A model generated the notes under the pieces. The model made no database searches, was not told where the DNA came from, and saw nothing but the letters and a program-made list of their open reading frames with translations. The position numbers and the translations under genes are program-made. Below, piece by piece: positions 316 to 17,745 of a stretch of DNA of 64,000 nucleotides. The first letter of the stretch is position 1. Each line of letters begins with the position of its first letter. Origin of the DNA: Gammaproteobacteria bacterium (GTDB taxonomy: Bacteria; Pseudomonadota; Gammaproteobacteria; Pseudomonadales; JADFDG01); the NCBI GenBank assembly GCA_046566505.1, contig JBKHWN010000159.1, positions 4,618 to 68,617 of the forward strand, written 5' to 3'.

Positions 316-986
316 GCGTCAGTTTCCTCGCCAGCGTCGGCAGTACTTCGCTGGGCCACATCGCGGAAGGTCTGCAGCAGACTCTTGAGGCTGTCCGGGT
401 TCGCCAAGTGGGTGATGATCGGACGTACCTGCAACTTGTCGTTCTCTATGTCGGAAACGACTCCGTGCTCCTTGAGCGCCTCAAGCAAGTTTCTCAGGCG
501 TTTCTGTTCCATGGCGTCGCTACCGAGGGACCCAAGGTACAACTGGATCTGCGGCAACAGGTCATCAATGGCCAGCGAGGCATCAGACGCACCGATGCCG
601 GCCTGTTGTTCGTGGGCAACGTAGTGCTGGCGTAGGATGGCCAAAAGCAGAGACTGATCCAGCGTCAATCGACGTTTGCGAATCAGCGGGTGTGACCATT
701 CTTCGTCCGATGAGGTTGCGACATCAGGCCTAACCGCAAGAAACGCCAGCCCCCTGATCTCATCCAGCCTTGCCTCGAGATCCATAGGCTCCAGTGCCGC
801 GTTAACTTCAGCGAGCGATGTGGACGCAACCCGATAGAGATTGGGCTTCCGAGCGGACTCCAGCAGCCCGTGCTTCATCAGCTCCTTCAGGGTGTCCCGG
901 ATTTCTGTCCGAGTCGTTCGCCCGGCATCGGAATCGACAGGTGCCTGCGAGGGAAGATGGTCTTCTGTATCCATCAGTTCAGACAT
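312..986 (-). CDS. jetB: Wadjet JetB (DUF4194-like kleisin-partner subunit)
   Basis: 224-aa acidic protein. It sits between a DUF3375-like gene and a Walker-A SMC-like gene, with 3-nt and 4-nt junctions. Size and position match JetB/MksE. Confidence 0.75.
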   Translation of the reverse strand: MSELMDTEDHLPSQAPVDSDAGRTTRTEIRDTLKELMKHGLLESARKPNLYRVASTSLAEVNAALEPMDLEARLDEIRGLAFLAVRPDVATSSDEEWSHPLIRKRRLTLDQSLLLAILRQHYVAHEQQAGIGASDASLAIDDLLPQIQLYLGSLGSDAMEQKRLRNLLEALKEHGVVSDIENDKLQVRPIITHLANPDSLKSLLQTFRDVAQRSTADAGEETDA

Positions 987-989
987 TAC

Positions 990-2486
990 CTAGATATCCT
1001 CATCGAGTGCATCGATGGCAGCGGCGGACAGGTGAACCAGTGGCACCCTGAAACGCCAGCGAGAGCTGTCATCTGCCAGTACGTCGAGTAATTCCTGGTC
1101 CGTGCCGACAGGCAGACCTGCGGCCCTTGCCATGCCAAGCCAAGCTGCAATCGTTTCCAGGTCGTGGGTCGGGGGGAGTAGCTGGGCAATCTCGCCAAGA
1201 GACAGGGGCTTGCCGGCGGCCATCAGGGCATTCAGTGTCGATTGACGGAGTGCCTGACGGTCGAGGCCATTCAGTGCTTCCCAAAACTCAGCATCAACCG
1301 AAGCCAGGTCGGGCTGACGCATGTTCAGGTCGAGCTCTCTGTCTTCGCTGTCCTCTTTCGAATAGGCGCGTAGTCGTTCAATGACTGGCAGGTTATCTAC
1401 GCGAATCGCCAGGGCGGGGAGAGGGGATGGCAGTTGGCGTGTGCTCTGGGAGCTCCAGTCAATATCCAGGGCAGCTTGCAGCACATCGGTGAGCATGGAG
1501 CCAACGCGGTGGTGTTCTGCCGCCAGCCCGGTTTTCAGGAAACCCTTAACGTCCCGCTCGCTTCTTGCGCGCGTTCGGATAACGCTCTCTGACTCTTTGA
1601 CCAGCCGCATGACAAGCCACCGCAGGTCGGCTTGTTGTGTACTGGTAAGCGCGCGGGAGGATGCCGGGAATTTCAGGATATCCCGAATTCTCACTTTCAT
1701 TTCATCAAGCGCAGCGGGTTGGTGAAGTTGTTGGTGAAATCCGTAGAAGACTCGGCCCTCCTGCGTTTGAAGAAGGTCGTCCTGGCTCTTCAAAAGGCTG
1801 TCCAGAATTTCTCCACGGTCTTGCTGCTCGCTAATGATCCGCTGCCGAAGAATACGGTCTGCTTCTCGCCACGAGTCCTCGACACGACGGAAGTCGGCGC
1901 GCAGCCCCATGGCCAATGCGTATGCTTCCCGGACTCGCTCAATGACCTCGCTTTCAGAAGGGACCGCCATGTGGCCGGCCTCGATGTCTGCCAGCTCGCG
2001 CTCAAGCGCTGCAATCTGTCGCTTGATCCGGGATGTGCGTGCGGCAGCACTCGGGTTGATGCTCGATTCGAGCCTTTCAATGAAGTCCTGCACCACCATC
2101 AGGCGGGATGCCGACGATGTCATGATCCGGGCGTCAAGGGACTGCACAAACCGGAATGCGGACTCGAGTGCATCGGTCGGATAGAGGCGATCGTTGCGCT
2201 CTACCAGTAACTGCTTCTTGATCCACGCCCGGATTTCCTGCCGGGCAGCCCGCGGATAGTCGGCCTCGTCAACGGCATACTCAGGGTCGCTGGCGTGTTG
2301 CTCCAGCAGGCCTGCCAGGGCCTGTGCCGCATCGTCAACGGCGACGCCGTCCTGGACATCCTCAAACAGAGTCTGCAGGCAGCTGATGACGAGCGGTGCT
2401 CTCCGGGAGGCTAGCAACTGCCAGGCGGGGTGTTGCTGCCTGGCGACGATGTAGGCTTGAGTCCGTTGGCGTGGCGATATGTCCAT
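990..2486 (-). CDS. jetA: Wadjet JetA (DUF3375-like)
   Basis: 498 aa. The N-terminus (HPAWQLLASRRAPLVISCLQTLFED) and long coiled-coil middle are typical of DUF3375/MksB-like proteins. First gene of the jetABC order. Confidence 0.8.
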   Translation of the reverse strand: MDISPRQRTQAYIVARQQHPAWQLLASRRAPLVISCLQTLFEDVQDGVAVDDAAQALAGLLEQHASDPEYAVDEADYPRAARQEIRAWIKKQLLVERNDRLYPTDALESAFRFVQSLDARIMTSSASRLMVVQDFIERLESSINPSAAARTSRIKRQIAALERELADIEAGHMAVPSESEVIERVREAYALAMGLRADFRRVEDSWREADRILRQRIISEQQDRGEILDSLLKSQDDLLQTQEGRVFYGFHQQLHQPAALDEMKVRIRDILKFPASSRALTSTQQADLRWLVMRLVKESESVIRTRARSERDVKGFLKTGLAAEHHRVGSMLTDVLQAALDIDWSSQSTRQLPSPLPALAIRVDNLPVIERLRAYSKEDSEDRELDLNMRQPDLASVDAEFWEALNGLDRQALRQSTLNALMAAGKPLSLGEIAQLLPPTHDLETIAAWLGMARAAGLPVGTDQELLDVLADDSSRWRFRVPLVHLSAAAIDALDEDI

Positions 2487-2722
2487 TTGCTACATCAGCC
2501 TAGTTTTGTGGCCTGGGGGGCGCTCCCTCCGAGAGGCCCTTGTGTGGCGCGCTGTTGGCGCACCACACATCGCTTGCCCAATGGTCGGTTCGACGAGTTC
2601 AGGTTGTCTACTATCGTCGCCCGACAGTAGGGCGGGGGTGCGACAAGGGCTGTCGCTTCTCGGGTGCACGCTGGCCAGCAATCGGGCGCCTTGGATAGTG
2701 CCCACCCCTCACAGGAACAGAT

Positions 2723-3487
2723 ATGCCAACCGGACACAGCCCTGACCCTTGGTGCCGCTACATCCCCCACCTGCACCGCGCCTTGGCTGACCCCTCCCAG
2801 GCCGGCTACCTGCCCTACGTCGCCGAGGAACTGACCCTCGAGCAAGCCTGTAGCGCCTGGGAGCCGCTCCACTACCTGTTCACCGCACTGCTGGGGTGGC
2901 GTTCCCCCGGCCATGGATTGGCTTGGTGGTATGCCGCCGGGAAGCCGGTGGATGATCCGCGGCTGGCGCTGGTGCGGGAACTGTGGGACGCCCATTACCA
3001 GCTCGACTACTACGCGGCATGGGCCTGGGCTCAGGGGCAGGTGTGCCTGACTCCGGACGACCTTGATCCGGCTGCTATGGCCTGCGCGTCCCTGTGGCAA
3101 AACGAGGCCTGGTGGCGGGCATTCAAGCGGCGCGGCCTGGACCTGCAGAACGATCCCTTCTACGGCGGCAGCAACCCGTTGCACCTCGGGCACAGCGAGA
3201 CGTTTGGGCGTCAGGAAACGCCGGGCGCCCAATTGGACCTGGTGGTGGACAAGGCGAGCCGAAAGGCGGTTCTCATGGTGTGCGGGCTGCTGTCCTGGCG
3301 GGCAGATCTGGACGCAGCTTCCACAAGGTTGCCCAGCCTTGGGGATAGGTCTTGGCACGTCGAGGTTATCGACCGTCAGGTGGGCTGGCTGGGTGAGTAC
3401 CGGCTGAGCCGCGACACGGGACTGTGGTTCCTCGGCAAGCACAGCTTGCACATGAGGGGAAACAGTTCAAACGCATCCAATCAGTAA
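2723..3487 (+). CDS. Hypothetical Trp-rich protein, no recognisable family
   Basis: 254-aa ORF with a strong GC3 codon bias in this frame (read manually). About 20 Trp residues. The overlapping 318-aa minus-strand ORF looks like a GC-frame shadow. Convergent 7-nt 3' overlap with the M48 gene. Confidence 0.6.
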   Translation: MPTGHSPDPWCRYIPHLHRALADPSQAGYLPYVAEELTLEQACSAWEPLHYLFTALLGWRSPGHGLAWWYAAGKPVDDPRLALVRELWDAHYQLDYYAAWAWAQGQVCLTPDDLDPAAMACASLWQNEAWWRAFKRRGLDLQNDPFYGGSNPLHLGHSETFGRQETPGAQLDLVVDKASRKAVLMVCGLLSWRADLDAASTRLPSLGDRSWHVEVIDRQVGWLGEYRLSRDTGLWFLGKHSLHMRGNSSNASNQ

Positions 3488-4197
3488 AGTCTCTGGTCTA
3501 GATGTCGATTGAGTTTTTCGCGAAGCGCTTTCCAGTCCGGCAGAACTCGGTCCATTAGGCGGTTGAAGCCGATGCCGTGGTTCATCTCCCGCAGATGGCA
3601 CAGCTCATGCGTAATGACGTAGTCGATACAGTCCTTGGGGGCATATATCAACTCTGGATTCAGGCTAATGATCCTGCCCTTTGAACAACTTCCCCAGCGT
3701 GTTCGCATCCGGCGGATGCTGAGGGTTTTCGCTGCGGGAAGTTTGAGCCGGCCGAGTCGCTCTACACATGCCAGATAGCGCTCGCGAATAACCTCGCGGG
3801 CACGTCCATCCAACCAGGTGTTGACCAGTCGCCCGGTCTCCGCCGGCGTCAGTTTGTGCGGCCCGCTAACTTCGATGTATCCAGGCACGACCTTGATGCG
3901 GCTATCCGGTGAGGTCACGAGCCGAAGTCGGTACTGGCGGCCCAGGTAGCGGATAGTTGCCCCAGGCAAAAACTGCTTAACGGGCTGCGGCGGAGGCAGC
4001 GTCGCCATGGCGCGTTGTTGGCGCAGGATCCACGCCCCGCGCTTTCCCACGACGGCGGCGATGCGCTCAAGCGATGCGTCGACGGGTGCATCGACAACAA
4101 CTTTGCAATCCGGGTGAACATGAATGGCAAGCGTCTTTCGCTGCTTGCGCCTGACCCGGTAGGTGATGGTCGATGTACCGAACTGAATCGATGGCAT
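3481..4197 (-). CDS. M48/DUF45 (YgjP-like) zinc metallopeptidase, last gene of the type I R-M operon
   Basis: HEXXH motif in ITHELCHLREMNH near the C-terminus. 238 aa. Starts 1 nt after the hsdR stop. This family commonly follows hsdR. Confidence 0.8.
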   Translation of the reverse strand: MPSIQFGTSTITYRVRRKQRKTLAIHVHPDCKVVVDAPVDASLERIAAVVGKRGAWILRQQRAMATLPPPQPVKQFLPGATIRYLGRQYRLRLVTSPDSRIKVVPGYIEVSGPHKLTPAETGRLVNTWLDGRAREVIRERYLACVERLGRLKLPAAKTLSIRRMRTRWGSCSKGRIISLNPELIYAPKDCIDYVITHELCHLREMNHGIGFNRLMDRVLPDWKALREKLNRHLDQRLY

Positions 4198-4198
4198 G

Positions 4199-7100
4199 TC
4201 AGGCGTTGTCTCTGCGCTTGGCTACACGCAGAAGCTGGTCACCCAGCTCGTCGCGAATGGCATACGGCACGTCGAGGCCATACGTTTCCTTCAGGTCGTC
4301 GAAATAGTCGTCGAAGGCGTTGAGGATGGCCTTGCGAACCTCGTCATTGCCCTGCCAGTCACGGATCTTGTGCCCGTCGATGATGACCTGAACCTGAATC
4401 GCGATTTCTGCGGCCAAGTCGCTGGGTTCAATTCCGTGAATGTCGTAACTGGCCAACGGCTCCCGGATGACGCCGTAGTAAGCCTTGGCGTCGCTGTAGG
4501 GTTTCAGGGAAGCCGGCAGGTCGCTGCTGCTCTTGCCGCGCAATTCGTCCAACTGCTTGCGAACACGGGCAAGGTACTCCGCATCTGAAAGCCGGCGCGC
4601 GCGATGCTCGGCAATGGTCTCGTCGATCATCTCGGACAGCCGCTTGTAGAGCGCCGGGTCCTCATCCATGTTCTCGGTAATGGTCTTCTTGACCCGGTTG
4701 GCGATGGCGTCGGCCTTGGCGGCATCCCCCTCGATGGCCAGCAGTTCCTGTTCGAAGGCATCGATGGCGTAGATGTCGACCGGCGCAACGATCTGCCGCA
4801 CCGTGTCGGCGCCGATGTACTTGTTCACGAGGTTGCGGATCTGGGCCTCATAGGCCGAGTAATCCACAGACTCGCCATAGCGCTGCTTGACCGCCGCGCG
4901 CAGGTTGAGGAATTCGCGCAGGTCATCCCGATAGCGCCGCTTGATGTCCTCCTTTGTTTCGTCCTGCCAGCGGGCATTGCCGATAGCGAGTTGCAGGGTG
5001 CGTGCGAAAGCCGAAAGCACCTCGTAGAACCGCTGCCGGATATCCGCCGGTTCCAGGTGGCGCTGCATGGCTTCTATGTCGCGCTTTTGGGCGACAGGCT
5101 TGAACACATCACAGACGTGGGTGTGCCTCTCGGGTAGTTTGGCCAGCTCTGCCGAAACGTCTGTCAGCGTGTCCTCGACATCGGCCCGGTCGAAGCCCTG
5201 ATTCTCGAGTTCGGCGTAGGTGTCGATGGCATCGTTCAGCTCGCCGAAAATTCCCCGGTAATCGATGATCAGGCCGAAGTCCTTGCCATCGAATAGCCGA
5301 TTCACGCGGGCAATGGCCTGCAGGATGTTGTGATCCTTCAGGCGCTTGTCGATGTACAGCACGGCATTTCGTGGCGCATCAAAGCCGGTAAGAAGCTTGT
5401 CGACGACGATCAGTATTTCGGGCTCATCAGAGTAGTTGAATCCGCTGGTGACGTTCTTGACGTAGTCCTTCTCGTTGCCGTGACGGTCCATCATGTCCTT
5501 CCAGAACTTTTGGACCGCCGGTATGCTGGACTCGTCGGTATTCGTGTGCCCCTCGCGCGTATCTGGCGCGGAAATCACCACCGCAACCGATACGCCGCCG
5601 AACTCCTCGAAATACGCCTTGTAGCGCAACGCCATTTCCTTGCTGGTGCAGGCGAGTTGTCCTTTAAGACCCGTGCCCTTGTACTTGGCGGTGTAGTGCT
5701 GGATGACGTCGTAGGCGATCTCGGCGATTCGCTGGTCTGCCTTGGTCAGTTCCTCTTCTCTGCGGAACTTCTTCTTGAGGTCCGCCTTCTGCTCTTTGGT
5801 AAGGTCCTTGGTGATGCGTTCGAACCAGCGGTCGATCTGTTCACGGTCGCCGTGCAGCTCGGAGTATCTGCCCTCGTAAAGCAGAGGTGTCACGGCACCG
5901 TCCTTGATGGCCTGGCTCATGGTGTAGGAGTGGATGAAGCCGCCAAACTTGCGGGCAGTCTCCTTTTCGATCTTGAGCAGTGGCGTGCCGGTGAACCCGA
6001 TGTAGCAGGCGTTCGGAAAAACGTTGCGCATTCGGGCGCTCATCTCGCCGTACTGGGAGCGGTGGCTCTCGTCGATCAGAACAAAGATGTCCGGACTCGG
6101 GTCCTTGACGCCGCGCTTTCCACCAACCGTGCCGAACTTGTTGATGATGGTCGTGATGATCGGCGCCTTGCCGTTGACGATCAGATCGACAAGATCCTCG
6201 CCGGTCCTGGCCTGGGCGACCTGCTTCCCGCAGTTCTTGAACGTCTTGTAGATCTGGTCGTCTAGGTCAACGCGATCCGTGACCAGAATGACGCGCGGGT
6301 TGCGAATGGCGGGGGAGAGCGTCAGGGCTTTGGCCAACATCACCATGGTCAGCGACTTGCCGGAGCCGGTGGTGTGCCAGATGACGCCGCCCTGGCGGGC
6401 TTCGTCGCCCCGTGACTGTGTGACGCGATCCAGTGTCGACTGGATGGCGAAATACTGCTGGTAACGACAGACCTTCTTCACTTTCGCGTCGTAGACGATG
6501 TATCGGTAGACCAATTCCAGGAGGCGTTCCTTGCGCAGGAGGCTATGGATCAGCCGATCCTGTTCGGAGGGCAGGCGTGGCGCGATCAGTGTGGCCAGCT
6601 CCGCATCCTGTGCAGCAGGGCGCTCTTCCTTCCAAAAGGACCAGAACTTCTCCGGCGTATCCGTGGTCGCAAACAGCGCGCGGTTCTGCGACAGCGCCAG
6701 CAGCAACTGGCTGAAGGCATACAGTTCTGGAATCTCATCGTGACGCTGGTTTCGGAGGTGCTGGCTGACAGCCTCTTTGACGGCATCCTTCAGATCGGGT
6801 CGCTTGCACTCGATGACAACCAATGGGATTCCGTTAACGAACAGCACCAGGTCCGGGCGCCGGGTCAGTTTGCTGTGGTGGCGTTCCACTTCGAATTCGG
6901 AACAGACATGAAAGACGTTGTTTTCCGGATGTTCCCAGTCGATGTAGTGCAGCGAATAGCTGCGAGTGTAACCATCGATGGTTTGCTCCAGGCTCTTGCC
7001 CAGGGTGATCAGGTCGTAGATGTCTTCGCTGGTCTTGATCAGGCTGTCGAACGGCAGCTGTGTTAAGGCTTGCACGGCCTTCTGGATATTGCCGTCGGAG

Positions 7101-7306
7101 AAGGCGTGTTCCTGGCCGCGGAAATTGATGCGGTTGATGCGGCGAAGCTGGGTGGCCAGCACATCTTCCAGAATCATGCGGGAGGTCTTGCCCCCGCGAA
7201 GGGTCAGCGCGTCGTCCGGCGACAGGCGCTGGTAGCCGAGGGCGACCAGCAGGCCGAGCGCCGGGACTTGTGAAGCTTGATTTTCGCGGTAGTCGGAGGC
7301 AGTCAT
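4199..7306 (-). CDS. hsdR: Type I restriction enzyme R subunit
   Basis: 1035 aa. Walker A is HTTGSGKSLTM and the DEAH-type box is VLIDESHRSQYG. SF2 helicase motifs; typical size and C-terminal helical domain. Confidence 0.95.
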   Translation of the reverse strand: MTASDYRENQASQVPALGLLVALGYQRLSPDDALTLRGGKTSRMILEDVLATQLRRINRINFRGQEHAFSDGNIQKAVQALTQLPFDSLIKTSEDIYDLITLGKSLEQTIDGYTRSYSLHYIDWEHPENNVFHVCSEFEVERHHSKLTRRPDLVLFVNGIPLVVIECKRPDLKDAVKEAVSQHLRNQRHDEIPELYAFSQLLLALSQNRALFATTDTPEKFWSFWKEERPAAQDAELATLIAPRLPSEQDRLIHSLLRKERLLELVYRYIVYDAKVKKVCRYQQYFAIQSTLDRVTQSRGDEARQGGVIWHTTGSGKSLTMVMLAKALTLSPAIRNPRVILVTDRVDLDDQIYKTFKNCGKQVAQARTGEDLVDLIVNGKAPIITTIINKFGTVGGKRGVKDPSPDIFVLIDESHRSQYGEMSARMRNVFPNACYIGFTGTPLLKIEKETARKFGGFIHSYTMSQAIKDGAVTPLLYEGRYSELHGDREQIDRWFERITKDLTKEQKADLKKKFRREEELTKADQRIAEIAYDVIQHYTAKYKGTGLKGQLACTSKEMALRYKAYFEEFGGVSVAVVISAPDTREGHTNTDESSIPAVQKFWKDMMDRHGNEKDYVKNVTSGFNYSDEPEILIVVDKLLTGFDAPRNAVLYIDKRLKDHNILQAIARVNRLFDGKDFGLIIDYRGIFGELNDAIDTYAELENQGFDRADVEDTLTDVSAELAKLPERHTHVCDVFKPVAQKRDIEAMQRHLEPADIRQRFYEVLSAFARTLQLAIGNARWQDETKEDIKRRYRDDLREFLNLRAAVKQRYGESVDYSAYEAQIRNLVNKYIGADTVRQIVAPVDIYAIDAFEQELLAIEGDAAKADAIANRVKKTITENMDEDPALYKRLSEMIDETIAEHRARRLSDAEYLARVRKQLDELRGKSSSDLPASLKPYSDAKAYYGVIREPLASYDIHGIEPSDLAAEIAIQVQVIIDGHKIRDWQGNDEVRKAILNAFDDYFDDLKETYGLDVPYAIRDELGDQLLRVAKRRDNA

Positions 7307-7412
7307 GGCTCAAGCCACTCTGAAAACGAGGAGGTCGGCCTACGACAAAGGTCGTCGGATGTTTGCAAAGGGCTACAGGAAGGAAGGTCGCAATAGGAGG
7401 GGGCACGTCCAT

Positions 7413-8222
7413 TCATGGCGCCACCGTTTCCTTGGCGGGCAGCAACCTGGCCATGTTCATGGCAGCAACGAGGTCATGCTGCGAGTTCAGGTGACGGCGG
7501 ACTGTCTGCAATGCCTGTTTCAAGCTGGCTATCTTGTCCTTGCTCTTCTGGCTGGCATCCCAGGACACATTCAGCGTGTCCATAAACGAAAAGAAGTACG
7601 CTTCCAGCGTTTCTGGAACCCAGAGAAAGTTGTGGGCAACAATTTTCTGCTCAAGCCCGTAGGATTCAAAAACGTATCCGGAGCGCGCATTCCAATACTT
7701 TGCCAGCCGGACTAAAGGACGAATCAGCCCATTGCAGCGCCGGTCCTTGGCGTCGAGATCCTTGCTGAATGCGTCTGGGGTAGTTTCCATCCACTTGAAG
7801 ATGGCGCCTTTCGCTGGGATCTGCAGGCCTGTCCAGATCGTGGCGTCCTTTGCAGGGACCAGCTCGAAGCGAATGTGGTTAAGATCCAGCGCGATGGTGG
7901 GGTGATCTTGATAGCGGGTCGAATTGCTGTATCGCCTTTCGGCGAATCGTTTGAGACGGTCCAGGTAGGTCTGGGGCTCCTTGTTTGAATCAGCGAACAC
8001 AACCATGTAATCGACATCGGACTGTTCGTCCATCCAGCGGGGCAGCATCGTCTGCCTTGCATACGAGCCAAAAATAAGTCGTTTCGACACGATTGCGTTG
8101 TCAAACTCTTCAAAAAGACGCTTGTCGAGAGTAGCTATCGACGTTTCGATGCCGGCCTTTTCTTGCTGCGACATCAGGGCGCCATTGGCGACTCTCTGCA
8201 GGTATGCGTTCACCGCTGACAT
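7413..8222 (-). CDS. SMODS/CD-NTase-like (pol-beta fold) nucleotidyltransferase
   Basis: FGSYARQTMLPRWMDEQSDVDYMVVF gives a GS...DxD active-site pattern, with a downstream acidic strand IRFELVPA. 269 aa. GGAG Shine-Dalgarno inside the end of the upstream 2TM gene; 1-nt gap. Confidence 0.7.
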   Translation of the reverse strand: MSAVNAYLQRVANGALMSQQEKAGIETSIATLDKRLFEEFDNAIVSKRLIFGSYARQTMLPRWMDEQSDVDYMVVFADSNKEPQTYLDRLKRFAERRYSNSTRYQDHPTIALDLNHIRFELVPAKDATIWTGLQIPAKGAIFKWMETTPDAFSKDLDAKDRRCNGLIRPLVRLAKYWNARSGYVFESYGLEQKIVAHNFLWVPETLEAYFFSFMDTLNVSWDASQKSKDKIASLKQALQTVRRHLNSQHDLVAAMNMARLLPAKETVAP

Positions 8223-8223
8223 C

Positions 8224-8730
8224 TCAAGGCTCCTTGTCTACCCGATGGGTTGCGCGATCTTCATCATCAATGTGCTTCCGGGCCTGCTCGTAAGCGAAGC
8301 CGGGGATACCGGAACTTGATGTGTTCAGCTCGGTACGGCGCCGATTCAATTCGGACAGCTGTGCCGTTGCGTCCTGCGCAGCCGAGGTCTGAGGAAGATC
8401 CACCGTCCGGAATATTCTGGCGTCGTTGCGCAGTGCGCCAAAACAGTCTCCAGCCGCCTTGTGTTCCTGGGCTTTCTCGGACGGGTTGAAGAATGTCAGC
8501 GCCGCGGCCGACAAACTGGAAAGAACGCCGGCGATGGCGGTCAGCCAAGTGCAATCCGAAAACGCGGACCCGCCAGCGATGGCACCGAAGAGCGCTGCGA
8601 TACCACCAATCACGTAATGGGTCGTCTTCCAGCGGGATTCAGCGTTGTAGTGTCCTTTTGACGAGAAGGTCGAATCCTCCTCGATGCGAGATGCCTCGTC
8701 GCCGATGGCTTTTCGGATTGTTTCGTCCAT
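8224..8730 (-). CDS. SLATT-like 2-TM effector protein
   Basis: 168 aa. Two adjacent hydrophobic helices (HYVIGGIAALFGAIAGGSAF and WLTAIAGVLSSLSAAALTFF) are followed by a charged helical tail. Sits immediately upstream of the NTase. Architecture matches SMODS-associated 2TM (SLATT) proteins. Confidence 0.6.
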   Translation of the reverse strand: MDETIRKAIGDEASRIEEDSTFSSKGHYNAESRWKTTHYVIGGIAALFGAIAGGSAFSDCTWLTAIAGVLSSLSAAALTFFNPSEKAQEHKAAGDCFGALRNDARIFRTVDLPQTSAAQDATAQLSELNRRRTELNTSSSGIPGFAYEQARKHIDDEDRATHRVDKEP

Positions 8731-8738
8731 ACGAGCCC

Positions 8739-9908
8739 CTATGCCTTGAGTCGCTTCTTGCCGGTCAGAAGAACGGCCATCAGGGCCTTCTTCTGACTTT
8801 CGAGCGCAGTTTTCTTTGCGATGAGCAAACGCAACTCCGTATCGGCCGCACCCAGAACCCTTGCAATCGCCGCCTGTTCCTTGGGGTCCGGCACAAGGAT
8901 GGATGCGTCCAAAAATTCGTCCACCTGAATTCTTCGGGCTTTTCGGCCGCCCTCCGCAGCGCCGGAGAATTGCGCGTAGAAGCTGGTTTGCCCAACGAAG
9001 CTCAGGAAGAATTCCGGGTTAATTCCGGGAGAGAAATCAAAGGCGGGAAGATCGAGCGTTGATTCGTATCCGTCCAGGCTGGGAGGAACGATGCCGAAAG
9101 CGCCATTTAGAAAATCAAGTTTTCCGTAAATAAATTGCCCGGCCTTACGACGGTAATACTTGGTGTTGTCGCTGCCGACCATGCGCTCTGAGCGCGGAAC
9201 CACGCCGTTCCCGTAGAGCTTAACAGTAAGCTTTCTTGCAGAGCTTCCGTCCGATCCGGGATTTCGGCTTTCAGTCAGGAAGGATCGGATTTGGGTCTGT
9301 GCCCACGGAGTCTTGAATCCTGGCAGGCGCATTTTACCAGTGAGCAGTTTCTGCATCAGCGCTTGCTTGCGTTGTTGTTTGGCGGCGATCAGGGATTCGG
9401 TGGTCGAAATTGCAACCTCCCATGAAACTACGGCCTTTGAGATGCGTGCTTGCTCCGCAGGCGTAGGAACGCCAACCTCTTGATCGAGGATGTCGTCACG
9501 GCGGACGTGCAGGAGGCTACTCTTAAACCCGTGGGCGTTTTCCTCGATCCTTTGAGTTACATCCATCAGCGCAAGGTAAAGCCATGATTTCTCGACCCCC
9601 GGCTTGGGGTGAACCTTGAATATGTGCTGGTTCAATACGCCGCGCGGGCCATTCCAGATTTTTGGCCCGAATGAAACCCCCTTTACTCCTGCCCAAGCGA
9701 ATAGGATTTGGCCTGGTTCAACCAGCCACCTTTTCTCTGGGTGGCCTTGGAAGTAGTTGAATTCCTTCGACCCGTTCAAATTCTGAATACGAATAATCGG
9801 AAGCCCGGACGATTTCCAGTCAGACGGTTTGAACCCGTTGCCACTTTCGAGGGTGCAAAGGTCGCGTACTAAGGCGACGCTCCATCCACTAGGAATCATT
9901 GCGACCAC
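8739..9908 (-). CDS. hsdS: Type I restriction enzyme S subunit (full length, two target-recognition domains)
   Basis: 389 aa. Has two conserved helical spacer regions (...AAKQQRKQALMQKLLTGKMRLPGF and ...ESQKKALMAVLLTGKKRLKA) that separate two variable domains. Confidence 0.9.
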   Translation of the reverse strand: MVAMIPSGWSVALVRDLCTLESGNGFKPSDWKSSGLPIIRIQNLNGSKEFNYFQGHPEKRWLVEPGQILFAWAGVKGVSFGPKIWNGPRGVLNQHIFKVHPKPGVEKSWLYLALMDVTQRIEENAHGFKSSLLHVRRDDILDQEVGVPTPAEQARISKAVVSWEVAISTTESLIAAKQQRKQALMQKLLTGKMRLPGFKTPWAQTQIRSFLTESRNPGSDGSSARKLTVKLYGNGVVPRSERMVGSDNTKYYRRKAGQFIYGKLDFLNGAFGIVPPSLDGYESTLDLPAFDFSPGINPEFFLSFVGQTSFYAQFSGAAEGGRKARRIQVDEFLDASILVPDPKEQAAIARVLGAADTELRLLIAKKTALESQKKALMAVLLTGKKRLKA

Positions 9909-10953
9909 CTTTTTTCGTCTTGCCTGCCTTCTCTAGCTTCTTGCTCTTGGTAATGGCCTCGACGAAATGCTTTTCCACCGGGCTTATTTCTGCCAACTGT
10001 GCCTGGCGGAATTTCTCGAACTCGATATGCGCTTTCTTCAGCGCCGTATCGTTGCTGATCCTGCCGGCATGGGTCAGGATGTCGCGCTCAGAAAGCCGCA
10101 GGAAGTCGTCGAGCTTTGAGACCCAGTCGGACATGCGCATCGCCCTTCGGCTTAGCGCCTGTAGTTCGGCGAACTCCAGGTAGAACGTGACGATCCGGTT
10201 CAGGGTGTCGAGCTCTTCGGTATTCAAGTAGTTCTTCGCCACCTCCGTATCGGCCTTGCGCGGCTTGTCGCCCTGCCAGCTCGTCAGGCCCATGTTGGGC
10301 TGCGTGGCGTCGGCGCGGCGCGCAATGACTTCGGCGGCAGTGTGACCGTGGGCAGCCCAGTGCATCTTGTTTTGCACCGTTGCGAAGAATAGCTGCGAGG
10401 TGTCCGTTTTCGGGTCGTAGTCGATGCTGGTGGCGTAGATCTCCAGCACCTTTTTCCAGAAGACTTTCTCCGAGCTGCGGATGTCGCGAATCCGCGCCAG
10501 CAACTCGTCGAAGTAATGGGTCTGCCCGGCCGCCTTGAGGCGGTCGTCGTCCATGGCGAAGCCCTTGATCAGGTATTCGCGCAGGCGCTGGGTCGCCCAG
10601 ATACGGAACTGGGTGCCGCGCCGGGACTTCACGCGGTAGCCGACCGAGATAATGACGTCCAGGTTGTAGAACTCGATGACCCGCTCGACCTGGCGCCCCC
10701 CCTCCGGCTGAACCGTTGCAAAATCTGCAACAGTTGCCTCCCGGAGCAGTTCCCCCTCCTCGAACACATTGCGAATGTGGCGGGAAATCACGGACTTATC
10801 GCGGCCGAACAGGTCCGCCATCTGCTGCAGGCTCAGCCAGACGGTCTCGCCGGCCATGCGCACCTCGATGCGCGACTGGCCGTCCTCGGTCTGGTAGAGC
10901 AGGAACTCGGAGCCGGACGGTGCGCCGGGCACGCCGATGGGGTTCTCAGACAT
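9889..10953 (-). CDS. rhuM: RhuM-family protein inserted between hsdM and hsdS
   Basis: FLLYQTEDGQSRIEVRMAGETVWLSLQQMADLFGRDKSVISRHIRNVF... is the typical RhuM N-terminus. I place the start at the ATG at 10953 (MSENPIG), an 8-nt overlap with the hsdM stop, rather than the track start at 11022. Confidence 0.8.
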   Translation of the reverse strand: MSENPIGVPGAPSGSEFLLYQTEDGQSRIEVRMAGETVWLSLQQMADLFGRDKSVISRHIRNVFEEGELLREATVADFATVQPEGGRQVERVIEFYNLDVIISVGYRVKSRRGTQFRIWATQRLREYLIKGFAMDDDRLKAAGQTHYFDELLARIRDIRSSEKVFWKKVLEIYATSIDYDPKTDTSQLFFATVQNKMHWAAHGHTAAEVIARRADATQPNMGLTSWQGDKPRKADTEVAKNYLNTEELDTLNRIVTFYLEFAELQALSRRAMRMSDWVSKLDDFLRLSERDILTHAGRISNDTALKKAHIEFEKFRQAQLAEISPVEKHFVEAITKSKKLEKAGKTKKGGRNDS

Positions 10954-12466
10954 AGCCGAGCTCCTTGAGGTAGCCGGCCATTTCCTTCTGTACGTCCTTG
11001 AGTTGCGCCTCCAGGGTGGCAATCTCCTTCTGTACCTTGGCCATGTCGATCTCGACTTCTTCCTCGAAGGTATCGACGTAACGCGGAATATTCAGGTTGT
11101 AGTCGTTCTCCTTGATCTCGGCGAGCGTGGCCTTGTGTGCATACTTCTCGACGTTCTTGCGCGCTTGTACGGTCTTGACGATTTTGGCGATGTCGTCCGG
11201 CCGCAGACGGTTCTGGTTCTTGCCGTCCTGGAAATCCCGGCTGGCGTCCACGAATATGACGCTCTTGTCTTTCTTGTTGCGGCGGAAGACGAGGATGGCT
11301 GCCGGGATGCCGGTGCCGTAGAAGAGGTTGGTTGGCAGGCCGATGACGGCGTCCAGCAGGTTCTCGTCGATCAACTGCTGGCGAATGCGGCCTTCGGCGC
11401 CGCCCCGGAACAAGACGCCGTGCGGTACCACGACACCAACGCGTCCGCTGGTGGCGGTTGTTGTTTCGATCATGTGGCTTATGAAGGCGTAGTCCGCCTT
11501 GGACTTCGGCGGTAGGCCACGATGAAAGCGCTGGAAGCTGTCTGTCTGGGCTTCTTCAATGCCCCACTTGTCCAACGAGAAGGGCGGGTTGGCGACGACC
11601 ACCTCGAACTTCATCAGACGGTGTTCTTCGGTCAGCTTCGGGCTGCGCAACGTGTCTCCCCATTCGATGCGGGCGCTGTCCACCCCGTGCAGGAAGAGGT
11701 TCATCTTCGCGAGCGCCCAGGTTTCGCTGTTGTTTTCCTGGCCGAATAGCGAGTAGTCCTTGATGCCCTTCCGGGTCAGTTGGTTTGCGCAGCGCAGCAG
11801 CAGCGAGCCCGAGCCGCAGGTCGGGTCGCAGATGCGTTCGCCAGGTTGCGGGTTAACCAATTCGGCCAACAGTTCGGAGACTTCTGCCGGGGTGTAGAAT
11901 TCCCCGGCCTTCTTACCGGCACCTGCGGCAAAGCGAGCGATCAGGTATTCGTAGGCGTTGCCGATCACGTCCAGATTGCCAATGCGGGACGGGCGCAGAT
12001 TCAGCCGGGCATCGTTGAAGTCCTCAAGCAGCATCTTCAGGCGTGCATTGCGGTCCTTGGTCTGGCCGAGGTTGGCTTCCGAGTTGAAGTCGATGTTGCG
12101 GAAAACGCCAGCCAACTTCTTCTTGTTGGCATCCTCTATGGCTTCCAGGGCGATGTTGATCAGCTCGCCAATGTTGGGCTTGTTGCGCTGCTCGTAGAGG
12201 TCGCGAAAGCTGGCCCCTTTGGGAAGCACGAAGCGGTCGCGCTCGAGGCGCCGGCGGATCGCGGCATCGTCACCCTTGTGCTTGGCGCTGAGTTCTTCGT
12301 AGTGCTCATCCCAGACGTCGCTGATGTATTTCACGAAGAGCGTAACGAGGATGTACGCCTTGTACTGCGAGGCGTCTATCACGCCCCGAAAGGTGTCGCA
12401 TGCCTTCCAGACGATGTTGTTGATTTCGTCCTGGTTGATCGGCGGGGTCTTTGCGCTCTTGCTCAT
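10946..12466 (-). CDS. hsdM: Type I restriction enzyme M subunit (N6-adenine methyltransferase)
   Basis: 506 aa. Catalytic motif VVANPPFS; AdoMet motif DPTCGSGSLL; HsdM N-terminal domain. Confidence 0.95.
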   Translation of the reverse strand: MSKSAKTPPINQDEINNIVWKACDTFRGVIDASQYKAYILVTLFVKYISDVWDEHYEELSAKHKGDDAAIRRRLERDRFVLPKGASFRDLYEQRNKPNIGELINIALEAIEDANKKKLAGVFRNIDFNSEANLGQTKDRNARLKMLLEDFNDARLNLRPSRIGNLDVIGNAYEYLIARFAAGAGKKAGEFYTPAEVSELLAELVNPQPGERICDPTCGSGSLLLRCANQLTRKGIKDYSLFGQENNSETWALAKMNLFLHGVDSARIEWGDTLRSPKLTEEHRLMKFEVVVANPPFSLDKWGIEEAQTDSFQRFHRGLPPKSKADYAFISHMIETTTATSGRVGVVVPHGVLFRGGAEGRIRQQLIDENLLDAVIGLPTNLFYGTGIPAAILVFRRNKKDKSVIFVDASRDFQDGKNQNRLRPDDIAKIVKTVQARKNVEKYAHKATLAEIKENDYNLNIPRYVDTFEEEVEIDMAKVQKEIATLEAQLKDVQKEMAGYLKELGYV

Positions 12467-13080
12467 GGTTGCTTTCCTTCGGCGAGTCGGGCGAGCGCGG
12501 CATTCAGCCAGCGCCCCTTGAGGGTGGTGAGTTGTTCGGTCAGTTCCTTTTCCCGTCGCCAGGCAGCCGCCACCGTGGCGATACGCTGCTGGATCTCCAT
12601 GGGGGGGAGTGGAACTGCAAGTTGCGACAGCGAGTGTCGCGGGACGTATTGGACGACGGCTCCGGTAGCAGAGCCCTTCAGATAGGCTTGGGCCGTTTCT
12701 TCATTGATGACCCAGGCGAGGTATTCGGGGGCCAGGAGGGATCGGTCCTTGATGCGTAGGATCGCAAGGTGCGGGCTGGCGACCGTTTGCCGGGGGGCGT
12801 CCCCCAGCGCTACGGCAAAGAAGCGGCTTCCCTTGCCAGAGAACAGCACATCTCCGGCCTGAAGCCAGGCCTCGTCTCTCACGTCCGCCAGGTCGGTAGG
12901 TGTCAGGGTGGCGATATTCAGCCCTCGCTCCGGGTCCAGGTCGCGCATCTGAATGATGCGCACGGCGCCCCCGGGGCGGTAGACAACCCGCTCCCGCAAT
13001 GGGATGCCGTTATGGATGGAGGCCAAAGCCTCCAGGGGTCTGGTCGGCAATTTTTGAGGCTCCTTCGCCTTTGATGACAA
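12463..13080 (-). CDS. Half-size type I S subunit (single target-recognition domain plus one conserved helix)
   Basis: 205 aa. One TRD-like region, then PPMEIQQRIATVAAAWRREKELTEQLTTLKGRWLNAAL, the conserved coiled-coil of HsdS. 4-nt overlap with the hsdM start. Confidence 0.7.
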   Translation of the reverse strand: MSSKAKEPQKLPTRPLEALASIHNGIPLRERVVYRPGGAVRIIQMRDLDPERGLNIATLTPTDLADVRDEAWLQAGDVLFSGKGSRFFAVALGDAPRQTVASPHLAILRIKDRSLLAPEYLAWVINEETAQAYLKGSATGAVVQYVPRHSLSQLAVPLPPMEIQQRIATVAAAWRREKELTEQLTTLKGRWLNAALARLAEGKQP

Positions 13081-13150
13081 CGCAGCCTAAGGGGTGCTAG
13101 AGTCTGGTGCAAGATATTTTGCATCAATGGCGATGATGGCGGGGGCGGGG

Positions 13151-13756
13151 ATGAAGAAGGATTTGTTTCTCAAGGAGCTGGCCCAGTCGGGCTACAACAT
13201 CGGGTATGCCGCCAAGAAGCACCTAGCGACCTTCGACATCGTCGAAAAAGCGCCGGGCTGGATCACCCTGGCGACCTTGGCCATCGGCATCTTTGCACTG
13301 GTCCTGCCGTCCCTTGAGCATCACCTGATTGCCGCATTGGTCATCGTGGTCGGCGTTGCCTCGATGTACTTCGGTTTTTATCAGGATTCCCGTGGCGGTT
13401 ACGAAAGGACGGGCAGTCGGCTGACGACGCTGTTCACCGAACTCCGCATGCTCTACGCCGAGGCGCAAAGCCTTGATGACAATGCGGACCTTGAAGGATT
13501 GAAGACCCGGTATAGGGCAATCCTCGAGGAATCGCAGCGTATCGGCATCAGCAAGCAGATTTTTCTCAGCGACTGGTACGCGCACTACAAATTCTTCTGG
13601 CAGGCGCAAACAGGCTGGCTGGACGAGCAACTGCATTTCGAATTCTGGCGAGACAAAGTCCCACTGTCGGCAACCGTTGTTGCCTGCGTGATGGTTATTG
13701 TTGGCCTCTTTGCAGCAGTTTCTGCCCTGGTCATTCACTTCGGTGCATGCCCATGA
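13151..13756 (+). CDS. SLATT-like (family-5-like) membrane effector protein
   Basis: The track ORF starts at a GTG at 13094. I prefer the ATG at 13151 (MKKDLFLKELAQSGYNIGYAAKKHLATFDIVEKAPGW), which follows a G-rich Shine-Dalgarno. Two central TM helices plus one C-terminal TM. Its stop overlaps the start of the downstream NTase (ATGA). Confidence 0.6.
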   Translation: MKKDLFLKELAQSGYNIGYAAKKHLATFDIVEKAPGWITLATLAIGIFALVLPSLEHHLIAALVIVVGVASMYFGFYQDSRGGYERTGSRLTTLFTELRMLYAEAQSLDDNADLEGLKTRYRAILEESQRIGISKQIFLSDWYAHYKFFWQAQTGWLDEQLHFEFWRDKVPLSATVVACVMVIVGLFAAVSALVIHFGACP

Positions 13757-15039
13757 GCGATTCCGAGCTGTTCGAGCAGTTCCGAAAGAATCTCTCGGTG
13801 AGCAATCGCGGAGACATCTCCACCAAATACTGCAACATCACCACCCGGCTAAACGCGGACTTCTGGGATCTGGAGTCCGACACTCGGCACAGCCTTCAGA
13901 TCGGTTCTTACGGCCGCGCCACCGCCATTGACGGCGTCAGCGATCTCGACATGGTGTTCGAGTTGCCCCCGGCAAACCTGGCGCGCTACAAGAGTCTGCA
14001 GGGGAACGGGCCGTCCGCGATGCTGCAGGAGGTGAAGGCTTCCCTTGAGAAGCGCTATCCAAAAACCGATGTTTCGGCGGACGGGCAAATTGTCGGTGTC
14101 AACTTCACAGGCTATCGAGTCGAGGTTCTGCCGGCGTTCCTTGATGAGAACGGGGACTATATTCACGGCGATACCAATGACGGAGGGTCGTGGAAGACGA
14201 CAAAGCCGCGACCAGAGATTCAGGCAATCAACGACCTGAACAAGAAGACGAATGGGAACCTCAAGGATTTGTGCATGATGCTGCGCGCCTGGAAGAACCG
14301 GGCAGGAGTAGGCATTGGCGGGCTGCTCATCGATACATTGACCTACAATTTCTGCAGTCAGCATGCTGGTATCGAGAATTTGACGTACCGCGACTACCCG
14401 ACTCTTATGGTTTCGCTGTTCACCCATCTGGGTGGCTTGCCGGATCAGGATTACTGGCTGGCTCCGGGAAGCAATCAGCGGGTACGGTGCAAGGCAAAGT
14501 TTCAAGCTAAGGCAAGGAAGGCGGCTGCCCGTTGTCAGGAGGCTGTCGACGCGACATCGGAAAATGCGCGGTCACGTCTTTGGAAAAAGGTTTTTGGACG
14601 CCCATTCCCGCAGCCGGAGGTTCAGCGGTTGGTGGAGTCGGCTTCAATCCCGAAAACGGAAGCGTTTATTGAAGATAAGTTCCCTGTCGATATTCGATAT
14701 AGCCTGGAGCTGGATTGTGAGGTGACTGAAAAGGGAAATCTCCGCGAGATGCTCCGTGGGCTTATCAGCAGTAAGCGAAGGGTCCCAACTGGCAGAGGAC
14801 TTCGCTTCTATGTCTCGGCGTGCGATGTACCCGGCGAATACGCGATATTTTGGAAGGTACGCAATAGAGGAGAAGAGGCCGAACGGAGTGGCAGGCTTCG
14901 GGGTGAAATTTCGTTCGACGAGGGCGGTCGTAAGGAGAAGCGAGAGACCGCAGACTTCCCGGGCGATCATTACGTCGAAGCATATGCAGTCAAAAATGGT
15001 GTCTGCGTTGCGCGGTGCAGAATTGCAGTGCCGATTTAA
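13747..15039 (+). CDS. SMODS-type nucleotidyltransferase with a C-terminal AGS-C-like sensor domain
   Basis: LQIGSYGRATAIDGVSDLDMVFELP gives GS-x11-DxD, and YRVEVLPAF gives the third acidic residue. A ~140-aa C-terminal extension follows (...LRFYVSACDVPGEYAIFWKVRNRGEEAE...). 430 aa. An alternative ATG at 13753 forms an ATGA overlap. Confidence 0.7.
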   Translation: MPMSDSELFEQFRKNLSVSNRGDISTKYCNITTRLNADFWDLESDTRHSLQIGSYGRATAIDGVSDLDMVFELPPANLARYKSLQGNGPSAMLQEVKASLEKRYPKTDVSADGQIVGVNFTGYRVEVLPAFLDENGDYIHGDTNDGGSWKTTKPRPEIQAINDLNKKTNGNLKDLCMMLRAWKNRAGVGIGGLLIDTLTYNFCSQHAGIENLTYRDYPTLMVSLFTHLGGLPDQDYWLAPGSNQRVRCKAKFQAKARKAAARCQEAVDATSENARSRLWKKVFGRPFPQPEVQRLVESASIPKTEAFIEDKFPVDIRYSLELDCEVTEKGNLREMLRGLISSKRRVPTGRGLRFYVSACDVPGEYAIFWKVRNRGEEAERSGRLRGEISFDEGGRKEKRETADFPGDHYVEAYAVKNGVCVARCRIAVPI

Positions 15040-15052
15040 TCTCGTAGGAACC

Positions 15053-15091
15053 AAAAAAAGAGGGTCAGCCAGCCGCCGGCGGAGCTGACCC
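15053..15091 (-). terminator. Rho-independent terminator between convergent genes
   Basis: GGGTCAGC (15062-15069) pairs with GCTGACCC (15084-15091). The loop contains a CCGCCGGCGG palindrome. The A7 run at 15053-15059 gives a U-tract on the minus strand. Confidence 0.6.
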
Positions 15092-15119
15092 TCACGCCCA
15101 AGGGGTCTGGTGACCCCGC

Positions 15120-16031
15120 TCAGGCCTGGTTTTGCGCCGGGGCAGGGGTGGAGCGTTGCTCCAGTCGCTGGCGCAGGCCCCCGGAGGGGACGGCGGTCAC
15201 GCCGGCCGGCGCAGGGGTGTCCGTGTCGGTCGGCGGGTAGAACTCCTCCAGGATCTCCGGCCCTTCCTCCTCGCTGAACTCGAAGGCCGCGTTACCGAAG
15301 CCCGCCTGAGCAGCGGCATCCAGTGCCGGCTGGTCCAATCCCGCTTCCAGGCGCCTGGCCGCCAAGGCTTTTGCCTCCGTGATGGCTTCCTCCAGCGACA
15401 TACCCTCCCGCACCCCCAGATCCACGTAGTAGATCGCCCCCCGATGGCTCTGGGTAGTGCTCTTGCCCCGCAGCCGTAGTTCCAGCGGCAGGCAAGCGAG
15501 CAGGTTCCCTGACACCGCCTTGTAGTAGCTCAACCGTGCCGCCAGCGTGCGAATCGAGTTGAACCCCGTGGTACGGAAGATGAACGTCCCGACCTCGTCG
15601 TCGTCTCCGATCCGGACGTTGAGGCGGCCATACGGCTTGCACATCCCGCCCTTGGCCAACTCGCAGACATCAGGAGACGGGCACGGAAGTGTCTGGACGC
15701 CAGCGGACGTTACGCGTCGGCACGTTTCCCCGTTGCCCACGCAGACCGGTCGCCCCGTCTGCCGGTCGAACATCGAATATTCCGCCCGCAGGTTCAGGTC
15801 GGGGTCGTTGAACAGCATGCGCACCGGGATGCTGCGCAGCTTCCCGTTCGGCGCGTTCTTGCGCAGCTCCTCGTCGTAGGGGTGCGGCACCCAGGCGCCG
15901 GCCACCTGGACCTGGGTGGTGATGGTGAACTGGTCGTCCTTCTCGGGCAGTCGCTTGCCATTCTTCTCGACGACACGCCCGATGCTGATTCGCCCGAGCA
16001 CGGGCGGGGTGATCGCAAGGCCTTTGATCAT
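15120..16031 (-). CDS. Conserved island protein with a Cys cluster (possible metal-binding); putative partner of the YqaJ exonuclease
   Basis: 303 aa. Cys cluster in CVGNGETC...LPCPSPDVCELAKGGMC. Acidic, Pro-rich tail. Lies directly downstream of yqaJ in the same orientation. Function not assignable from sequence alone. Confidence 0.5.
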   Translation of the reverse strand: MIKGLAITPPVLGRISIGRVVEKNGKRLPEKDDQFTITTQVQVAGAWVPHPYDEELRKNAPNGKLRSIPVRMLFNDPDLNLRAEYSMFDRQTGRPVCVGNGETCRRVTSAGVQTLPCPSPDVCELAKGGMCKPYGRLNVRIGDDDEVGTFIFRTTGFNSIRTLAARLSYYKAVSGNLLACLPLELRLRGKSTTQSHRGAIYYVDLGVREGMSLEEAITEAKALAARRLEAGLDQPALDAAAQAGFGNAAFEFSEEEGPEILEEFYPPTDTDTPAPAGVTAVPSGGLRQRLEQRSTPAPAQNQA

Positions 16032-16091
16032 GGTCGTTCTCCCAAATGGGGTATGCGCAGGCCGGCATAGCCGGCACCGCGCGTCGAGGGT

Positions 16092-17009: not shown

Positions 17010-17020
17010 GGGTTTCTCCA

Positions 17021-17338: not shown

Positions 17339-17374
17339 GGCGTTTTCTTCCCTGGTGGATGTGGATGCGACTAA

Positions 17375-17724: not shown

Positions 17725-17745
17725 CCGAGGGCCTGCCCGGCGCAG

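Follow-up and report, generated by a model that had tools for sequence, protein, structure and literature searches.

How does a signalling module with a membrane effector come to reside inside a restriction operon, and does it serve that operon or only travel with it? The question is raised by a locus at positions 3481-15039 of a 64,000-nucleotide stretch (the window) of contig JBKHWN010000159.1 from a Gammaproteobacteria bacterium (GenBank assembly GCA_046566505.1). A two-transmembrane (2TM) protein and a SMODS nucleotidyltransferase, together referred to as pair A, are encoded here between hsdS and hsdR of a type I restriction-modification (R-M) operon, a site that we call slot 2, and a second pair of this kind (pair B) is encoded divergently next to the first operon gene. 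In our judgement the locus is probably, though with real reservations, a layered anti-phage island in which the lineage of pair A occupies slot 2 mainly through exchange, linkage and the complementarity of two layers of defence; a dedicated molecular link between pair A and the restriction enzyme would not be needed to explain its residency there.

Gene identities were obtained by Pfam and PADLOC profile searches of the open reading frames (ORFs) of the window. The minus-strand genes run in the order half-hsdS, hsdM, rhuM, hsdS, 2TM gene, SMODS cyclase gene, hsdR and YgjP/DUF45 peptidase gene, with a SLATT_6 gene and a SMODS+AGS_C gene diverging from them on the plus strand, and all ten are intact on ORF and motif inspection. 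A sequence-only reading of this DNA had listed the same ten genes, strands and seven junctions, and ORF coordinates, Pfam and PADLOC agree with it gene for gene. Computed from the ORF coordinates, the minus-strand junctions are -4, -8, -20, +8, +1, +106 and +1 nt, of which the second requires rhuM to start at the ATG at 10953, where its overlap with the hsdM stop reads ATGTCTGA.

The hsd genes encode what marks a type I enzyme in sequence, namely the HsdM domains, an HsdS with two target recognition domains (TRDs) and an HsdR with an N-terminal nuclease and a superfamily 2 translocase. HsdM (10946-12466, minus strand, 506 aa) matches HsdM_N (PF12161, 2e-29), N6_Mtase (PF02384, 3.5e-109) and the PADLOC MTase_I model. 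The full-length, two-TRD HsdS (8739-9908, minus strand, 389 aa) matches PADLOC Specificity_I (PDLC03087, 2e-62) over residues 4-388 as well as Pfam Methylase_S, and HsdR (4199-7306, minus strand, 1035 aa) contains HSDR_N, SWI2_SNF2, T1R_D3-like and T1RH-like_C regions and matches PADLOC REase_I at 2e-232. The last operon gene starts 1 nt past the hsdR stop and encodes a YgjP-like/DUF45 (M48/SprT-like) zinc metallopeptidase (3481-4197, minus strand; PF01863, 6e-55), with its HExxH motif present as 'THELCH'; it is kept after hsdR in nearly all relatives. Judged by its gene content, the core is an intact type I R-M operon of the form half-hsdS, hsdM, slot 1, hsdS, slot 2, hsdR, YgjP/M48. Slot 1, between hsdM and hsdS, is filled by rhuM (9889-10953, minus strand, 354 aa), whose product fits the profiles Virulence_RhuM (PF13310, 3e-114) and PDC-S05 (PDLC04843, 1e-149). 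The operon begins with the single-TRD half-hsdS (12463-13080, minus strand, about 205 aa), which matches the 208-aa PADLOC profile PDLC03199 at 2e-20 and Methylase_S weakly. A half-length hsdS-like gene upstream of hsdM is kept across this R-M family (e.g. L009, L013, L020, L104, L106, L108, L109 and L112). Encoded alongside a full-length hsdS, the half-HsdS may confer a second (palindromic) specificity or may play another role.

Pair A consists of effector A (8224-8730, minus strand, 168 aa), which matches the PADLOC 2TM effector PDLC00712 at 3e-53 and SLATT_4/DUF4231 weakly, and, 1 nt downstream, cyclase A (7413-8222, minus strand, 269 aa), which matches PF18144 (5e-34) and the PADLOC Cyclase model PDLC00769 (1e-94). 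An AlphaFold2 (AF2) model of cyclase A has a predicted local distance difference test (pLDDT) score of 93.4, and its top Foldseek matches are CdnD, CdnC, CdnB, CdnG and CdnE (TM-scores 0.70-0.78). In an alignment of 48 cyclase A homologues, G52, S53, D69 and D71 never vary and position 120 is always acidic (E/D), so that model and alignment point to a cGAS/DncV-like nucleotidyltransferase (CD-NTase) fold with a GS…DxD…D/E active site; GS and DxD motifs are retained in the translations of both cyclases of the locus. Two hydrophobic helices span about residues 38-80 of effector A, whose AF2 model (pLDDT 86) is a hairpin built entirely of helices, and a fold search with it gave no significant match in the PDB. 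Pfam and PADLOC detected no Cap2, Cap3, HORMA or TRIP13 accessory domains in the operon. As a gene pair, pair A has the make-up of a minimal type I cyclic oligonucleotide-based antiphage signalling system (CBASS), with a SLATT 2TM effector and a sensor-less CD-NTase. Its tight spacing in the operon (+8 and +1 nt, with overlaps in relatives) suggests that it is transcribed together with the hsd genes.

To what extent the embedding is a habit of the lineage can be seen from its relatives. A scan of metagenome contigs yielded 479 relatives of cyclase A, of which the best 80 were kept. These loci were annotated by searching their six-frame ORFs with phmmer, for which proteins of the window served as queries. 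Once cyclases sharing 90% identity had been collapsed, 57 clusters were left, 39 of them with enough flank to judge, and the relatives of pair A in these informative clusters show 41-62% identity. The arrangement hsdS-2TM-SMODS-hsdR, with pair A embedded in slot 2, was found in 24 of the 39. A further three have hsdM/hsdS upstream of the pair followed by the contig end and are probably also embedded; in two, where hsdR belongs to a different type I family, the pair comes immediately behind that gene (Pfam annotation of L063 bears this out), an M-S-R-SLATT-NTase order which is seen also on an annotated Aeromonas caviae plasmid; one (L069) has it inside another multi-gene system with a methylase and a helicase; and in nine no hsd gene lies within reach. 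Among four further contexts annotated with Pfam, three are embedded and the fourth (L110) has the pair just upstream of hsdM-hsdS-OLD/TOPRIM-UvrD. Even at a background rate of 20%, the binomial tail for the embedded fraction is below 1e-8, clusters not being independent events.

In the embedded loci the cyclase has also co-diverged with its operon neighbours. Divergence of cyclase A correlates with that of the 2TM effector (r=0.82), YgjP (r=0.80), HsdR (r=0.75) and HsdM (r=0.71), and in a Mantel test none of 2000 permutations reached the observed value in any of these cases (p<0.0005 each). A neighbour-joining tree without branch support places the embedded state on basal branches and throughout the largest clade, and the solo and 'appended' states in one derived clade. 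A locus at 47% identity (L009) shows the order half-hsdS, hsdM, hsdS, 2TM, SMODS, two interposed genes (DUF3800 and one more), hsdR and YgjP in a context other than that of the window, where an Mrr-like gene precedes the operon and an integrase gene follows it. On this comparative evidence, we consider the association of the pair A lineage with type I R-M to be strong and old.

Among more distant relatives the picture is different. Plasmid relatives at 24-43% identity are mostly solo pairs, and a search of genome contigs with cyclase A alone returned three distant Bacteroidota loci (32-35% identity) without hsd genes. Searching the phage collection gave a single distant match to cyclase A, and judging from this, pair A does not appear to be typically phage-borne. 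Firmicute relatives of cyclase A at 37-43% identity (L097 7998-9545, on L. lactis pMRC01, together with L095 and L096) have no SLATT gene annotated upstream; instead, a gene for a hypothetical protein of about 255 aa, possibly a different effector, follows that of the cyclase.

Seen from the side of the restriction operon, the same slot holds many other things. In a reverse test, ten plasmid operons of the same R-M family (L104-L107 and L113-L118; HsdR 42-65% identical) were inspected. The half-length hsdS-like gene lies near the start in nine of them, directly before hsdM in eight, the PLSDB gene table of the tenth beginning further in, and all ten have the SprT/YgjP peptidase after hsdR. None carries a SLATT/SMODS pair, and in all ten the site between hsdS and hsdR is filled with other cargo: TIGR04141 in three (none annotated in slot 1), and in one operon each an Abi family protein (slot 1 empty), Fic (MazEF in slot 1), a HAD hydrolase (RhuM in slot 1), Shedu with DUF3800 (RhuM), Shedu with a HAD hydrolase (RhuM), a hypothetical protein with a Ser/Thr kinase (slot 1 empty) and DUF3800 (slot 1 empty). 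Since unrelated cargo occupies the site in every one of these operons, slot 2 is a general cargo bay. HAD hydrolase and DUF3800 genes recur there and are not established defence genes.

The closest relatives show how such cargo may be exchanged. Two independent metagenome lineages, L004 and L005, carry the complete composite locus with 88-94% nucleotide identity, so that its genes have not come together here by chance. L004 has a cyclase 94-95% identical to cyclase A and shares with the window both the island flank and the divergent pair B; in L005 the cyclase is 61-62% identical, and rhuM and pair B are also present. Nucleotide comparison of the window with these two loci reveals a mosaic, with a backbone 88-94% identical and a divergent block comprising hsdS and pair A (window 9881-7309). 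Between L005 and the window, HsdR is 98% and HsdM 99% identical, as against 61% for the cyclase. Slots 1 and 2 are both recombination-active cargo bays. Passengers decay in close relatives: rhuM in L004 is cut to its N-terminal 88 codons, and the 2TM gene in L005 (6519-6647) is a 42-codon stub, with the adjacent 281-aa cyclase and the divergent pair B intact. The stub variant occurs in five samples (L005; also L006, L007 and L012). The L005 cyclase may have been left without a partner, or its signal may act on a different effector.

A mechanism can be sketched in which the systems act as two layers of defence. As family membership suggests, the R-M enzyme would cut unmodified incoming DNA, and on a phage cue cyclase A is predicted to make a cyclic oligonucleotide, which would activate effector A and so lead to membrane disruption and abortive infection. 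This second layer would complement restriction as the first. The conserved hsdS and hsdR flanks would let cassettes pass from one related operon to another, and linkage would provide co-expression and co-transfer of pair A with the hsd genes.

Pair B behaves differently from pair A. It comprises effector B, a SLATT_6 membrane protein (13094-13756, plus strand; PF18169, 2.6e-65; PADLOC 2TM effector PDLC00695, 1e-76), and cyclase B (13747-15039, plus strand, 430 aa), a SMODS CD-NTase (PF18144, 2e-44) with a C-terminal AGS_C sensor (PF18134, 1e-40) that matches the PADLOC Cyclase model PDLC00796 at 1e-165. The true start of the SLATT_6 gene is most likely the ATG at 13151, giving 201 aa, because Pfam matches the longer ORF only from residue 20 onwards and homologues are annotated as proteins of 201-208 aa; about 70 bp would therefore separate the divergent operons. 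With a SMODS cyclase, here bearing an AGS_C sensor, and an adjacent SLATT effector, pair B has the gene content of a type I CBASS. Homologues of pair B (54-66% identity) form a SLATT_6 + SMODS-AGS_C cassette complete in itself, with integrases or housekeeping genes as neighbours; it stands alone in all six other contexts and in none of them lies within a type I operon. Three of the six have a single-chain IIG-like methylase neighbour within about 2 kb, these neighbours (L098 10884-13811, L119 10155-13061 and L120 3976-6132) being an MmeI-like type IIG enzyme or a 718-aa N6-methylase protein. The difference between the pairs in type I association holds under Fisher's exact test both for embedding (24/39 against 0/6, p=0.007) and for any type I attachment (29/39 against 0/6, p=0.001). 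Among relatives of pair A, pair B is found only in L004 and L005; back-to-back with the operon it is thus seen only in the island lineage of the window. Its distribution identifies pair B as an independent mobile type I CBASS that is not part of the conserved unit.

These results allow the earlier interpretation to be refined. The sequence-only reading had seen two modules bracketing a methylase and specificity core, which is true of this island lineage and is not a conserved design, because pair B lies outside the conserved unit. The association of SMODS/SLATT pairs with type I R-M loci that it proposed to look for is seen for the family of pair A (24 of 39 embedded) and not for that of pair B (none of six). 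Restriction-failure sensing, its example of coupling, is a hypothesis that is weighed below. As for its two explanations, selection for coupling or an insertion hotspot, we find elements of both, which bear differently on the two pairs: pair A is frequently embedded and co-diverges with the operon genes, yet the slot accepts unrelated cargo in ten of ten plasmid operons and passengers decay.

Several points weigh against the layered-island account. The sample is biased, consisting of the best 80 of 479 relatives found with probes from the window's own proteins and grouped into phylogenetically non-independent clusters. Pair A occurs in four methylase-linked arrangements, namely in slot 2, after the hsdR of another family, within the methylase/helicase system of L069 and upstream of hsdM-hsdS-OLD-UvrD in L110, and its fidelity to methylase systems exceeds what flank-mediated exchange alone predicts. 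Cyclase A is short, and neither Pfam nor the AF2 model reveals a recognisable sensor or regulatory domain by which it would perceive a cue of its own. A scan of the locus for promoters and terminators performed no better than on shuffled sequences (two promoter-like sites against 3.1 expected) and is uninformative, so that the case for co-transcription comes from gene spacing. Finally, a 106-nt insertion relative to L004 (7307-7412) parts cyclase A from hsdR in the window, whereas in L004 the stop and start overlap as ATGA; it has CCATGA at both ends and a short hairpin (ACGAC-CTTT-GTCGT) within, and no second copy of it was found elsewhere in the window.

The most serious alternative, which we regard as unlikely though deserving of attention, is a guard of the PrrC kind, where the R-M complex keeps the sensor-less cyclase A inactive, or is monitored by it, and where an anti-restriction protein of the Ocr, ArdA or Stp type that disables restriction would cause the cyclase to fire. 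The 2TM effector would then kill the cell, turning restriction failure into abortive infection. The position of pair A is that of prrC in EcoprrI, between hsdS and hsdR (PMC12707154; 10.1101/2024.01.29.577857), in 29 of the 39 informative clusters its relatives lie within a type I R-M operon or attached to one, as against none of the six contexts of the pair B family, and this association spans two type I families and other methylase systems; the co-divergence of cyclase A with HsdR and its want of a sensor domain fit as well. Extended to the lineage, this alternative makes pair A a dedicated guard of type I and related methylase systems with the Hsd complex itself as the sensor, hence the absence of a sensor domain from the cyclase. 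Release of the cyclase, by phage anti-restriction proteins or by restriction complexes that have stalled or failed, would then set off membrane-mediated abortive infection. In this general form, too, we think it improbable. Slot 2 of the same R-M family takes many unrelated cargos; in at least nine clusters, and in plasmid examples, the pair stands alone, away from any R-M gene; and a near-identical hsd backbone tolerates both divergence of the cyclase to 61% identity and the loss of its 2TM partner gene, such cassette swapping on a constant backbone arguing against tight co-adaptation. Nor does pair A have homology to PrrC, an ABC ATPase with an anticodon nuclease; being a CD-NTase with a 2TM protein, it was rejected as a member of the PrrC family.

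Cross-talk between the cyclases, to which we assign a low probability, would make both modules one circuit, in a decoy version like that of Panoptes, with a constitutive nucleotide from cyclase A setting the state of a 2TM effector and cyclase B as the inducible arm; such a circuit could also detect phage anti-CBASS nucleases or sponges. Extra cyclase genes near pair A relatives occur within the fetched flanks of 8 of the 57 clusters, a count for which the background rate of multi-cyclase neighbourhoods is not established. L078 has a DncV-like + AGS_C cyclase without an effector of its own in slot 1 and pair A in slot 2, and L005 keeps a cyclase A without the 2TM gene next to an intact pair B. 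Panoptes offers a precedent, as a minimal cyclase and 2TM effector with inverse signalling that are often found beside CBASS (PMC13580996, PMC12657230). On the other hand, outside the closest relatives pair A is found without pair B, whose homologues stand alone as cassettes; cyclase A has the predicted fold of a CD-NTase and not the mCpol/Cas10 palm, and effector A is an all-alpha SLATT protein in place of 2TM-beta or CARF-TM. Membership of Panoptes itself was rejected: the top structural matches of the cyclase are all CD-NTases, its Pfam family is SMODS, and the all-alpha effector A has no match to 2TM-beta (Cap15-like) or CARF-TM proteins.

Several of these neighbourhoods merit a description of their own. 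In L078 (4353-5930), which falls in the same cluster as L075, a 526-aa DncV-like NTase with AGS_C is encoded between rhuM and hsdS, giving two cyclases and one 2TM effector within a single type I operon. Tandem or neighbouring extra cyclases by pair A relatives are also present in L050 (2174-5961), L031 (4820-7303) and L001-L003.

A one-off accidental insertion of a CBASS into the restriction operon of this genome, without evolutionary persistence, would suit the 106-nt insertion scar at the cyclase/hsdR junction and the location on a mobile island, but we give it almost no credence and rejected it, as the same arrangement recurs among relatives in dozens of divergent loci with co-diverging genes.

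We thus return to a layered island with exchangeable cargo, and the surroundings of the locus are those of such an island. A tyrosine integrase gene (22000-23349) adjoins a tRNA-Leu gene at 23498, genes for a Gp3-like recombination directionality factor, YqaJ and DUF932 lie to the right of the locus, and the GC content of the locus is 0.55-0.60 against about 0.65 in the flanks. By these signs the locus is cargo of a mobile genomic island that has integrated at tRNA-Leu. Beside the R-M operon, a type I Wadjet system is encoded on the minus strand (window 1-2486), with JetB at 312-986 (PADLOC JetB1, 6e-86), JetA at 990-2486 (JetA1, 2e-212) and the first ~100 codons of JetC (JetC1, 4e-46) running off the window start. 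Between the YgjP gene and jetA is a 318-aa ORF (2495-3451, minus strand) without a Pfam or PADLOC match, about 700 nt of which are kept in L005 (the alignment reaching window 2744); given its position in a defence island, it could be an uncharacterised defence gene. L004 has after YgjP, where the window has this ORF and Wadjet, a gene for a 1693-aa protein (14669-19750) with faint nSTAND1/nSTAND3 NTPase matches, and the right-hand island cargo is therefore variable.

For CBASS cyclases only a few triggers have been identified, and the way in which they perceive infection is for the most part an unsettled question. If the guard reading were true, one CBASS clade would gain a defined, testable trigger, and a clade living mostly in type I R-M operons would give anti-restriction proteins or Hsd loss a testable role as the switch. 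Even without such a role, type I CBASS is added to the cargo known in the site between hsdS and hsdR. Additionally, the family running from half-hsdS to hsdR-M48, with slot 2 filled in every operon examined, is a compact place to seek new defence genes.

How the locus stands among known systems can be considered for each of its parts. Both pairs resemble type I CBASS in consisting of a cyclase and a 2TM effector without Cap2, Cap3 or HORMA genes. A lactococcal SLATT + NTase/AGS-C type I CBASS counts as one of the antiphage systems that have been verified in Lactococcus (PMC11381338), and pair B shares that architecture. Cyclase A departs from the usual type I CBASS in being unusually short (~260-280 aa), sensor-less and, as far as its sequence tells, promoter-less within the operon of another system. 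Panoptes, which combines mCpol with 2TM-beta or CARF-TM (PMC13580996, PMC12657230), is like pair A a sensor-less minimal nucleotide cyclase with a small membrane effector, often encoded next to CBASS; unlike it, the enzyme is Cas10/GGDEF-like and not a CD-NTase, and the effector folds differ too. The mentions of hsdR/hsdS in the Panoptes paper are strain genotypes only.

PrrC, masked by the type IC R-M enzyme in EcoprrI and released by T4 Stp (PMC12707154; 10.1101/2024.01.29.577857), is likewise a passenger within a type I operon, belongs to a family found almost only in that setting and is the paradigm for restriction-failure sensing; it is a single ABC-ATPase/anticodon nuclease, whereas pair A is an unrelated CD-NTase with a membrane protein. 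Defence genes inside type I R-M operons, as in the window, are also reported in the 'guilt-by-embedding' survey of Payne et al., with candidates in type I R-M, BREX and DISARM (10.1101/2024.01.29.577857), and for TgvAB in V. cholerae, an embedded-defence parallel (PMC11411939). The RhuM of the window corresponds to PADLOC PDC-S05, a numbered phage-defence-candidate model of the class which that survey introduced (10.1101/2024.01.29.577857); CBASS, SLATT and SMODS were not found in its text or in 11 supplementary files. The sequence-only reading had considered the locus undescribed as a unit. This holds for its cargo, as searches of the accessible literature that combined CBASS or SLATT with type I R-M gave no account of a CBASS embedded between hsdS and hsdR, but not for its architecture: cargo between hsdS and hsdR, an M48 gene after hsdR and RhuM between hsdM and hsdS have been described for other cargo (PMC12255303; 10.1101/2024.01.29.577857; PMC11411939).

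The RRDM island of enteropathogenic Escherichia coli (EPEC) has the order RptR-hsdM-hsdS-DarTG2-hsdR-M48 on horizontally acquired DNA, and its authors see in the hsdS/hsdR site a potential hotspot at which defence systems recombine (PMC12255303). Like the window it has a two-gene module of abortive type in that site, hsdR immediately followed by a gene for a zinc metallopeptidase, and a setting of horizontally acquired DNA. It differs in its cargo, which is the DarTG2 toxin-antitoxin in place of SLATT + SMODS, and in its first gene, the rptR repressor in place of half-hsdS; the window differs in turn in that its second slot, between hsdM and hsdS, is also filled, with rhuM. Set beside these systems, the locus is, by its gene content, a genuine stack of anti-phage systems carried by a mobile island, and its architecture matches that of the embedded-defence operons described for PrrC, DarTG2/RRDM and TgvAB.

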